64,000 nucleotides of DNA from Diadema antillarum (taxonomy: Eukaryota), in NCBI RefSeq assembly GCF_040938485.1, contig NW_027271016.1, positions 1,780,436 to 1,844,435 on the forward strand. The letters are read 5' to 3'. The notes under the pieces are model-generated. The model saw only the letters and a program-made list of their open reading frames with translations. It was not told the DNA's origin and made no database searches. The translations under genes and the position numbers were made by a program. How positions within the stretch are numbered: position 1 is the first letter of the stretch; each line of letters opens with the position of its first letter. Of the stretch, positions 13,700 through 15,660 are shown in pieces.

Positions 13700-14560
13700 C
13701 CAGGATTTCATCTTGGGGGGGGGGGGGGGTAGTCTGCGAGGGAGCGAAGCGAGCGAGGGGGGGGGGGGGAGGGTGTAGGAGGGGCTGTCCCCCCTCCCAC
13801 GGTAAGAACTTTGTGCATTTTGATGTTGTAAATGGTGCAATTTGATGCATGTTTTTGCGCGTTTTATCGACGTGAAACAGTCCCACTTGTTTAAGGTAGC
13901 AGTATTATTTTCATGTAGATTATTATTGAACAATTTGCCTATAAAATGGTATAATCTAAATACACTTCTTGCATTAATTCTCTTCACTGAATATCATGAA
14001 CGCGACTAAACCCGAGCGAGCGGAGTGAGCGAGGGGGAGGTGAGGGTGTGGGAGGGGGGTGTCCCCCCTCCCACGGTGAGAACTTTTTGCATTTTGATGT
14101 TGCAAATGGTGCAATTTGATGCATGTTTTTGCGCGTTTAATACGTGAAACAATCCCACTTGTTTAAGGTTGCAGTATATTTTGATGTAGATTATCATTGA
14201 ACAATTTGCCTATAATATGGTATAATTTTAATACACTTCTTGTATTAATTCTTTTCACGGAATATCATGAACGAGACTGGATCCGAGCGAGCGGAGCGAG
14301 CGAGGGGGGAGGGGAGGGTGGGGGAGGGGGTGTCCCCCCTCCAACGGTGAGAACTTTTTGTATTTTGATGTTGCAGATGGTGCAATTTGATGCATGTTTT
14401 TGCGTGTTTTAACGAGTTGGAAACAGTCCCACTTGTTTAAGGTAGCAGTATTATTTTTATGTAGATTATTATTGAACAATTTGCCTATAAAATGGTATCA
14501 TTTAGATAATCTTCTTGTATTAATTCTTACACTGAATATCACGAACGCTTTCTGTTCAGC
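13700..14560. repeat. Satellite array of about 3.1 copies of a 273-bp unit with a G-tract/C-tract palindromic core (..GGGGGGTGTCCCCCCTCCCACGGT..)
   Basis: The anchor CTCCCACGGT recurs at 13793, 14066 and 14339, an exact 273-bp period. The units are more than 90 percent identical. Overlapping ORFs on both strands are artefacts. Confidence 0.8.
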
Positions 14561-14569
14561 GATCAAACA

Positions 14570-15660
14570 GAAAAATCATGCACACGAGGGTGTTGATAGG
14601 GGCATATCCCCTCCCACACGAAGGTGATTTTGTGTTTTCAGACCTGAAATTCAGCGATCTGGTGCAAATTTTTGGTGCAATACTTTTTCATCGAAGTGTT
14701 AAAATCACGGAATTTAGCTCTTATTCCGAATGTGCATCGCTGTGTGTATGTACAAAGTCTAGTGAGGTAGAGCTTAGGGGAAGGGGGATTCCCCCTCCCG
14801 CTCGCGGAGCTTTTGCGTTTTTAGAATTGAAATAAAGCGATCTGGGGCACACTTTTTGTGGAAAATTCGGAAATTGTCATTCCCAAAAATGTACTAAGTC
14901 TATAGTGGGTAACAAGCAATGAATGGGTGGCAAGATACCTCTCCCATATTCAAGGGAGCCTCTTTTTTTTTCAGTTTTAAGCTTTTAGAACTGAAATTCA
15001 ACAATCTGGCGCACACTTTTGTTGAAATATCTGGAAATTTGTCAATCAGAAGAGAAGTGTAGCAAGTCTGTGGAAGGAGATTTTGTATGATTTTCTGATT
15101 GCAGTTAAACGTTTTGGTGCACACATTTTGTGTCATATTTGGAAAACTGTTTATGTTCAAAGTGTAGCCAAAGTCTACTTCTATGCATGGCGGGGGGGGG
15201 GGGGGGGGGAGGGGCGGGCTAGCAGGGAGAAGGCGTGGGCGAGTGTTATCTCCACCCTTCCCTTACGATGGAGCTTTTGCTTTTTTAAGGTTGAAATTGA
15301 GATATCTCGTATACGCATATTTGATGGAGTATTTGGGAAATCACAAACAAACAAACAAAAAACTGACTGGGGGGACTGAGGGAGGAAGGGGTCGATTAAA
15401 AGGGGAAATTTCCCTTATACATGAGGGCAGTTTGAGTCTTTGGAATATAAGTGATAAGTCTTGTGCACTCAGAATTATTCATAATTTTTTGTAAATCTAA
15501 AAAGTGTACTAAGCTAGGGAAAGAGGCACAGAGGGGGAGGGTTTGGGAGGGGGATACCCCCTCCCAAGCACGAGAGATTTTGCATATTTTGAATTGAAAT
15601 TCAACGATCTGGTGCACACTTTGAGTGAAATATTCATAAAAATATGATATTATTCGATGA
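14570..15660. repeat. Second, more diverged satellite (about 170-bp unit, at least 6 copies). Each unit has a GGGGnnnCCCC palindromic core followed by ..TTTTGCnTTTTnnGAATTGAAATTCAnCGATCTGGTGCACACTTT..
   Basis: The GATCTGG[GC]GCACAC anchor recurs at 14660, 14838, 15005, 15110 and 15606. Poly-G tracts lie at 15190-15212 and 15755-15775. Confidence 0.6.

Follow-up and report, generated by a model that had tools for sequence, protein, structure and literature searches.

A putative non-autonomous hAT-like transposon of Diadema antillarum with two internal tandem arrays and a probable fragment of the CLP1 gene

Pack-TIRs, that is, non-autonomous transposons with terminal inverted repeats (TIRs), a target-site duplication (TSD) and a host-gene fragment in the interior, have been documented in 100 animal genomes with hAT as the commonest carrier (208 of 370), and their origin has been modelled as gap-filling or as fork-stalling template switching (FoSTeST) in transposon DNA that is repetitive and prone to rearrangement (Tan et al. 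2021, PMC8277862). A second group of described systems comprises elements that bear tandem repeats and seed satellites, such as the miDNA4/Xstir MITEs (transposable elements of miniature size with inverted repeats) of Xenopus, pearl/CvA of bivalves, and DINE-1 and Tetris of Drosophila (review PMC9659126). The structural criteria for the hAT superfamily are an 8-bp TSD, the terminal motif YARNG and TIRs of 14-16 bp, which begin with CAGTGG or CAGGGG in many families (PMC3014272). The silkworm MITEs BmMITE-13 to -16, classified as 'Pegasus-like', have an 8-bp TSD of any sequence and the TIRs CAAGGGCGGATCCAG, CAGTGGCGTACCTA and CAGTGGCGGATT (PMC2997013). Here, these systems are compared with an element designated E1 that is contained in a stretch of 64,000 nucleotides from Diadema antillarum (contig NW_027271016.1, positions 1,780,436 to 1,844,435); the whole stretch is referred to as the window, and positions are counted from its first nucleotide. 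A first-pass annotation of the window had described the block between 13,700 and 15,660 as two adjacent satellite families.

The element E1 extends from position 13689 to position 15804 (2,116 bp), is bounded by TIRs and a TSD and contains both arrays, which were named A and B (Table 1). The 16-bp TIRs, CAACGGCGTATCCAGG on the left and CACTGGCGTAGCCAGG on the right, agree at 13 of 16 positions and have the motif CA(G/A)NGGCG(T/G)A(T/G)C(C/T)AGG. Both TIRs are directly abutted by the perfect 8-bp TSD ACGAAACG, the left junction reading ...GGTA-ACGAAACG-CAACGGCGTATCCAGG... and the right junction ...CCTGGCTACGCCAGTG-ACGAAACG-CAGG... in the assembled sequence. The TIR motif is enriched in the window, with five matches at up to three mismatches versus 0.19 expected and seven matches to a degenerate pattern versus 0.21 expected. 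The chance of an 8/8 duplication abutting both TIRs is 4^-8 per element, and such a duplication was seen for E1 as well as for a second element, E2; the joint chance of TIR plus TSD is far below 1e-5 per element. Since TIRs abutted by a perfect 8-bp duplication lie around the arrays, the block from 13.7 to 15.7 kb represents the interior of E1. With a probability of roughly 0.7, E1 is a non-autonomous cut-and-paste DNA transposon of hAT-like type, in which the arrays are passengers and the unit of array A is a captured fragment of the gene CLP1. A transposase domain was not found in any open reading frame (ORF) of at least 110 amino acids within the window, and with regard to coding potential, Pfam gave no match for any ORF that overlaps E1 or E2, nor for other long ORFs. 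A structured-RNA or short interspersed element (SINE) origin of the block was ruled out, as Rfam gave no matches in the window and no tRNA was present in 12-17 kb. A Helitron/Helentron reading, for which a 5' TC, a 3' CTRR, a subterminal hairpin, insertion at AT or TT and the absence of TIRs and a TSD served as criteria, was rejected for E1 and E2 because these elements have TIRs and 8-bp TSDs.

Three sister elements, E2, E3 and E4, were identified in the window, and the termini of all four elements align, with family TIRs typified by CAGNGGCGNATCYAGG. The element E2 has perfect TIRs and a perfect 8-bp TSD, GCCAATTC, at 50902-50909 and 52577-52584. It likewise contains an internal array, with a unit of 261 bp (51432-52012) that is present in 2.2 copies at 93% in addition to partial copies, and furthermore several C-runs and the palindrome GGGGCACGTGCCCC. 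A comparison of the interiors of E1 and E2 revealed that their common sequence is limited to low-complexity runs and the 20-nt motif GAGCGAGCG-N-AGYGAGCGAG, which was found in the window solely in the A units and in the units of E2. Inspection of the flanks of E3 showed that its TSD is not recognisable any more, and neither a left end nor a TSD partner of the solo right end E4 was found upstream. MITEs are characterised by TIRs, a TSD, a lack of coding capacity and a small size (less than about 800 bp), and by size E3 alone qualifies with 153 bp; E1 with 2,116 bp and E2 with 1,667 bp exceed this size because of their arrays and are therefore better termed non-autonomous elements.

Further repeats were observed at the E2 site. 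A small palindromic MITE-like insertion at 51282-51429, with 44-nt arms that are 84% complementary and with ends reading GGGG...C16, is lodged in the first unit of the E2 array. Blocks of 10-bp repeats, for example ACTTGCGAAT, TAGTTACGTT, GTGGACGCAG and TAACTATCCG, surround E2 at 47109-47189, 48989-49036, 49175-49205, 49294-49334 and 50830-50879, some of them apparently in opposite orientations, and may be subterminal repeats of some larger element.

With regard to superfamily, the TSDs of 8 bp abut the termini of E1 and E2, and the short TIRs of 16-17 bp, for which ~10-25 bp is expected in hAT elements, display the motif YARNG as CAACG at the left end of E1, CAGTG at both ends of E2 and the right end of E3, and CAGGG at the left end of E3 and in E4. 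These structural features suggest that the E1-E4 family belongs to the hAT superfamily. Membership in another superfamily that generates 8-bp TSDs, such as P or a less-known one, is unlikely. P elements likewise generate 8-bp TSDs and have ends that start with CA, and the window contains no transposase that could decide the superfamily, which in the case of hAT would be a DDE enzyme with a hAT dimerisation domain and often a BED finger. Their TIRs, however, are usually longer, their transposase contains a THAP domain, and the P-type consensus CANRG of the Repbase classification fits CAGGG and CAACG but is violated by CAGTG of E2. All three tips, CAGTG, CAGGG and CAACG, are in turn in agreement with YARNG and with the CAGTGG or CAGGGG starts of many hAT families with 14-16-bp TIRs. 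What can be further cited in favour of P or a related superfamily is that Galileo, a member of the P superfamily, has internal tandem repeats (PMC4168063) and that the look-alike MITEs of the silkworm were termed only 'Pegasus-like' and not hAT.

The first-pass annotation had attributed to array A about three units of 273 bp with an exact period. The number of units was confirmed, whereas the period determined by Tandem Repeats Finder (TRF) is 271 bp and the start-to-start spacing of the units varies between 271 and 275 bp. The three units have a mean column identity of 92% in a MAFFT alignment and a common order, in which the GAGCGAGCG motif is followed by a leader rich in G, the palindromic core, approximately 95 nt, an antisense piece derived from a CLP1 exon, and a tail.

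When the ORF through A1 was translated and searched against a protein collection, one protein (P0007) was retrieved. It is encoded on the Tara metagenome scaffold TARA_SAMEA6055087_METAG-scaffold_321933 (L003; 942 bp), which comprises exon 1, the short intron 1 and exon 2 of CLP1. Uniqueness to the assembly, which had been named before as a refuting condition, accordingly does not apply to the repeat, since this independent scaffold contains the A unit. Residues 19-82 of P0007 were aligned by HMMER to the CLP1 proteins of human (8hmy_E) and C. elegans (4ohv_A), with the peptide TPMITYINIYT opposite to TPMLLYLNTHT and TPMVIYLNIHA, respectively; the exon codons reached by the match to the repeat unit specify PMITYINIYT. 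An exhaustive search with P0007 delivered 584 homologues, nearly all with their best matches over residues ~19-82, and in an alignment of nine sequences the residues T71, P72 and M73 are invariant, with Y76, N78 and L84 being part of the conserved pattern ETPMxxYxNxHxxLxxxR. At the nucleotide level, positions 701-942 of the scaffold are 86-89% identical to the minus strand of the A units in matches of up to 243 bp (blastn; 243 bp at 88.9%), which span a unit boundary of array A and extend as far as the scaffold does. Their homology starts at scaffold nucleotide 698 (codon P72) and covers PMITYINIYTETLNK up to AA/GTGGGA at nucleotides 743/744, which is the only plausible splice donor. The identity amounts to 0.87-0.97 on either side of this exon/intron boundary and drops abruptly to a background of 0.4-0.5 upstream of nucleotide 698. 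A blastn comparison of the exon alone (nucleotides 546-743) with the whole window detected A2 with 38/43 identity and an E-value of 1e-5. The CLP1 sequence in the A unit, which is in antisense orientation, thus comprises the final ~46 nt of exon 2 and no fewer than 199 nt of intron 2. Since the codons of this exon are ancestral for animals, the transfer proceeded from the gene to the repeat unit. The presence of a gene-homologous internal segment and its position between both TIRs and the TSD argue for the A unit being a CLP1 fragment that was captured in an event of the Pack-TIR type and later triplicated, with the caveat that the parental locus comes from a metagenome and is of uncertain species. 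The closest relative of the scaffold's CLP1 among 1.8 billion proteins is only 58% identical, and the donor lineage is therefore poorly sampled.

Two features of the Tara scaffold complicate its relation to array A. Relative to the order on the scaffold (tail, leader, core, 95 nt, exon), the array (leader ... tail) is circularly permuted in phase, which could mean that its source was tandem beforehand, that one permuted unit was triplicated in situ, or that a circular intermediate took part. Additionally, the intron part of the scaffold includes the leader and core and the GAGCGAGCG motif, which are otherwise associated with transposons in the window; either intron 2 already held a fragment of the transposon family or the leader-core module provided the homology for template switching. 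Both features, along with the fact that a single short-read scaffold ending within the repeat is involved, could be taken to mean that the CLP1 similarity is misleading, in that the scaffold is chimeric, represents a transposon copy with captured CLP1 sequence, or leaves only the 46-nt exon piece as gene-derived; with a chimeric scaffold or a transposon copy, the functional CLP1 locus need not be the origin of the A unit. This explanation appears improbable, since the scaffold presents CLP1 in the correct order (exon 1, intron 1, exon 2) and the identity is unbroken across the exon/intron boundary; moreover, each of its variants would leave genuine coding sequence of CLP1 in the A unit.

Array B was missed by TRF and consists of seven decayed units with the anchor motif TTTTGCNTTTTNAGAATTGAAATNNAGCGATCTGGTGCACAC. 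The units are 108-192 bp in length with a mean of ~159 bp, which bears out the annotated presence of a diverged second repeat of about 170 bp behind array A. In shuffle tests with core-less units, z-scores of 6-20 were obtained among B1, B2, B3, B4 and B7, B5 being weaker and B6 marginal. When a profile built from B units without their cores was run with nhmmer, it matched exactly six B units (E-values between 1e-18 and 1e-24) and no other site in the 64 kb. The description of two families around G-tract/C-tract palindromic cores also proved to be correct: the similarity between A and B units in the leader and core reaches z = 4-7 and is followed beyond the core by a weak collinear stretch of ~40 nt with z = 1-3.5, whereas no relation of core-removed A and B units was detected, either in pairwise comparisons or by the profile of core-less B units. 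There are therefore two unit types with one common module. Judged by its seven decayed units, array B is the older one, and array A with three units that are 88-92% alike is the younger.

The core GGGG-N3-CCCCCTCCC occurs seven times in matches on both strands, compared with 0.00 expected occurrences. It had been stated that every unit of both arrays carries such a palindrome; in fact, the core is intact in A1-A3, B1, B2 and B7, present as degenerate remnants in B3, B5 and B6, and absent from B4. Likewise, G-runs of up to 25 nt do not act as palindrome arms, as had been proposed, since the long runs of 13-23 nt are tracts apart from the palindromes (G15, G13, G18 and G23 at 13715, 13757, 15192 and 15748), one of which, the G18 run at 15192-15209, is located within array B. 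As single-stranded DNA, the palindromes at 14048-14074 and 15540-15570 have hairpin energies of -15.7 kcal/mol (z = -4.7) and -13.3 kcal/mol (z = -5.2), respectively, and the remaining cores form hairpins of -6 to -10 kcal/mol that are no better than those of shuffled sequences; hairpins favoured by adjacent complementary C-runs are predicted at -8 to -16 kcal/mol. The G-runs could form G-quadruplexes (G4), as had been suggested, in the sense of a predicted potential: E1 contains seven canonical G4 motifs, defined by at least four G3+ tracts with short loops, and eight G4Hunter regions at a threshold of 2.0, all G-rich on the plus strand and with scores of up to 2.26. The density of canonical motifs is 3.3 per kb in E1 versus 0.15 per kb outside the elements (~22-fold). 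According to these predictions, hairpin and G4 would be competing structures that draw on the same G tracts, and the C-runs nearby would favour hairpins.

The distribution of these motifs in the window is closely linked to the four elements. Of 13 palindromes of the type G4+..C4+, 11 are located within E1-E4, which represent 7% of the sequence (binomial p = 1.6e-11). Subterminal G/C palindromes are present as GGGGCACGTGCCCC in E2, as GGGGGGTGCACGCACCCCCC in E3 and as G-run-CGACCG-CCCCC in E1, and four of the seven termini in the alignment, E1 left, E2 right, E3 left and E4, have a G-run ~15-30 nt inward of the tip. The transposon family is thus marked by G/C palindromes and G tracts, in subterminal regions as well as in internal units, and this signature explains the recurring cores better than the functional constraint that had been considered before. 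The assumption that G/C runs also mark the termini of other elements was confirmed for 52370-52570, the right end of E2, and failed for 5316-5411, 8479-8510, 23524-23565, 27127-27222 and 34164-34182, where no TIR is present. The window contains 24 homopolymer G/C runs of at least 9 nt, and the annotated sites without a TIR lie at microsatellite or T-run junctions or in G-rich low-complexity DNA. Long G-runs adjoin T-runs or a (TG)n microsatellite at 8470-8502, 34976-35044 and 5361-5413, with no TIRs nearby, and such junctions reflect a homopolymer habit of the whole genome or, possibly, an artefact of sequencing or assembly. Accordingly, G/C runs are general in the genome but strongly concentrated in the E1-E4 family.

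Several observations weigh against the interpretation of E1 as a hAT-like transposon with a captured CLP1 fragment. The TIRs of E1 are imperfect, and the right tip CACTG departs from YARNG at position 3. The duplications ACGAAACG and GCCAATTC have neither the T at position 2 nor the A at position 7 of the hAT consensus nTnnnnAn; this consensus is loose, with varied TSD patterns (PMC3014272), so the mismatch weighs little. Neither a transposase nor an autonomous copy is present in the window, and the superfamily was therefore called from structural features alone. E1 itself was seen only once, and the transposition of exactly this element is therefore inferred; in addition, E1 and E2 have termini and short motifs in common but not their interiors. 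The CLP1 link depends on a single metagenome scaffold of 942 bp, which was assembled from short reads, is of uncertain species and ends inside the homology. A BLASTP comparison of the antisense translation of A2 with P0007 gave no match at the protein level because the A copies are frameshifted, and the evidence for CLP1 is hence DNA-level evidence. The B units have the leader and core in common with the CLP1-derived A unit, which a simple capture model leaves without explanation. Finally, the assembled homopolymer lengths may be unreliable, and what the palindromes do mechanistically is a matter of conjecture.

The annotated satellite families, proposed to be centromeric or subtelomeric, would be the edge or an island of long arrays with the cores retained as protein-binding sites. 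The tandem layout with a conserved core motif is compatible with this view, and repeats borne by transposable elements are known satellite seeds (PMC9659126), so that long arrays elsewhere in the genome are conceivable. Satellite DNA, however, is characterised by long homogenised head-to-tail arrays of typically hundreds of copies or more, usually in heterochromatin, and the arrays of E1 comprise just 3.0 and ~7 copies, lie between TIRs flanked by a TSD, and have exons and other transposons as neighbours; the same architecture is seen in E2. The sole external copy, on the Tara scaffold, resides in the intron of a gene, and the units gave no matches in the scanned JGI metagenomes, GTDB genomes and IMG/VR, in which searches with a 28-mer of array A, a degenerate motif of array B and the terminus of E2 yielded zero matches or one chance match (L004). 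Genuine satellite families are thus very unlikely. A local tandem duplication or an assembly artefact (a collapsed or mis-joined repeat, or a poly-G artefact) with coincidental flanking repeats is hardly credible, because, error-prone and frequent as long G/C homopolymers are in the window and imperfect as the TIRs of E1 are, the A units differ by 8-12% and the B units by 20-40% and are therefore not collapsed copies, the A unit occurs in an independent dataset, and the combination of TIR and TSD, with its low joint chance, recurs in a perfect case in E2.

With E1 read as a hAT-like non-autonomous transposon, the following course of events can be envisaged. A transposase of hAT type, encoded elsewhere and acting in trans, would have inserted the element and thereby duplicated 8 bp of the target. 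The arrays may have grown within E1 by slippage, unequal exchange or template switching, either in replication or in the repair of excision gaps, and the CLP1 piece may have entered through a template switch, by gap-filling or FoSTeST (PMC8277862), before it was triplicated. The trigger could have been the hairpin- and G4-prone palindromes and G tracts, which would stall replication or gap repair and thereby promote switching and slippage, resulting in arrays and gene capture. The most likely role of the palindromes, put forward tentatively, would be a structural one, by stalling; alternatively, they might be subterminal repeats that are bound by the transposase. The further proposal that palindromes and G tracts are cis modules encoded by the family, for transposase binding or stalling, and constitute its own hotspot for arrays and the capture of host fragments is tentative and rather unlikely. 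If it were true, the family would itself drive the formation of new repeats and the shuffling of gene fragments.

The coordinates of the features of E1 and its sister elements are compiled in Table 1. Apart from these elements, the clear domains in the window are limited to RVT_1, an ASC (amiloride-sensitive sodium channel) exon and a RING exon. An ORF of 498 amino acids with RVT_1 (E = 5e-37) at 44672-46168 is presumably a copy of a non-long-terminal-repeat retrotransposon; no exact counterpart of this ORF was found in public assemblies. The ASC exon is located at 55233-55682 (E = 4.5e-23), with the best public relatives being 65% identical, and the isolated exon of a RING-finger protein at 22091-22480; by virtue of these two exons, the window represents gene-bearing metazoan DNA. 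A degenerate array of TTAGG/TTAGGG-like units (GATTAGGATTAGGGTTAG) was observed in an internal position at 35568-35641.

Table 1. Positions of the features of E1 and of its sister elements in the window.
Feature	Position	Strand	Remarks
E1 left TSD copy ACGAAACG	13681-13688	.	identical to 15805-15812; abuts TIR
E1 left TIR CAACGGCGTATCCAGG	13689-13704	+	begins CAACG; motif enriched in window
E1 left subterminal region	13705-13736	+	G15 run (13715-13729); direct reading, run listing, alignment of termini
Array A	13737-14548	+	TRF: period 271, 3.0 copies, 88% matches, score 1251
Array A units	A1 13737-14010, A2 14011-14281, A3 14282-14548	+	MAFFT alignment
CLP1 exon-2-derived segment	A2 14159-14199; A1 ~13887-13928; A3 ~14433-14474	-	codons PMITYINIYTETLNK
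Best palindromic core, GTGGGAGGGGGG-TGT-CCCCCCTCCCAC	14048-14074	.	12+12 nt; inverted-repeat and pattern search
Other palindromic cores	13775-13798, 14322-14342, 14599-14615, 14779-14799, 15545-15565	.	
Array B	14575-15690	+	seven decayed units; repeat families D3, D5, D7, alignment, shuffle tests, profile
Array B units	B1 14575, B2 14758, B3 14922, B4 15064, B5 15236, B6 15379, B7 15525-15690	+	
E1 right subterminal region	15691-15788	+	G23 run (15748-15770) forms G/C palindrome with following CGACCGCCCCC
E1 right TIR	15789-15804	-	CACTGGCGTAGCCAGG on minus strand; 13/16 match to left TIR
E1 right TSD copy ACGAAACG	15805-15812	.	direct repeat
E2	50910-52576	+	1,667 bp; perfect 17-bp TIRs CAGTGGCGTATCTAGGG
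E3	23923-24074	+	153-bp MITE; ends CAGGGGCGGATCCAGG ... CAGTGGCAGATCCAGA (minus strand); hairpin palindrome GGGGGGTGCACGCACCCCCC
E4	12774-12853	-	solo right end CAGGGGCGGGTCCAGA; G11/C11 run 27 nt inside tip

With the preferred reading of E1 as a hAT-like transposon, the apparent satellite pair would be reclassified as transposon cargo, which alters the annotation and masking of the region. The element would provide a concrete animal case of a cut-and-paste transposon with a captured exon/intron piece of the essential gene CLP1 at the beginning of its tandem amplification, and thereby a small-scale view of repeat families arising from genic DNA inside mobile elements. Since the family is marked by G-run/C-run palindromes at its termini and in its interiors, it offers a testable link of structure-prone DNA, tandem duplication and gene capture.

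A comparison with the known systems reveals both likenesses and differences. The tips of E1-E4 are nearly identical over the first 10-15 nt to those of BmMITE-13 to -16 of the silkworm, and E1 and E2 likewise have 8-bp TSDs. In contrast to E1 and E2, the silkworm MITEs measure 263-431 bp, and neither internal arrays nor G/C palindromes have been reported for them; the likeness is limited to the tips, which do not demonstrate common descent. Galileo, the P-superfamily transposon of Drosophila (PMC4168063), resembles E1 and E2 in that it moves by cut-and-paste, varies in its internal tandem repeats and often forms structural variants, but its repeats are located within very long TIRs and it encodes a THAP transposase, whereas E1 and E2 have TIRs of 16-17 bp and arrays in the interior. 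Similar to the elements that seed satellites, E1 and E2 hold short arrays of ~150-270-bp units between their termini, the sister elements differ in their arrays, and the repeats look like satellites although they are dispersed. Unlike those elements, E1 and E2 have termini and TSDs of hAT-like type instead of Tc1/mariner, Helitron/Helentron or foldback type, their units are phased by a G-run/C-run palindrome, and no long derived arrays were seen in the window. With Pack-TIRs, in particular Pack-hAT, there is a correspondence in composition, since E1 appears as a non-autonomous element with TIRs, a TSD and a host-gene fragment in its interior. It differs from typical Pack-TIRs in that the fragment consists of an exon end and an intron, is antisense and non-coding, and has been triplicated in tandem, and in that its parental locus is known solely from a metagenome scaffold of uncertain species. 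These phenomena are already known in kind, and E1 is an additional member of the Pack-TIRs and of the repeat-bearing non-autonomous transposons.

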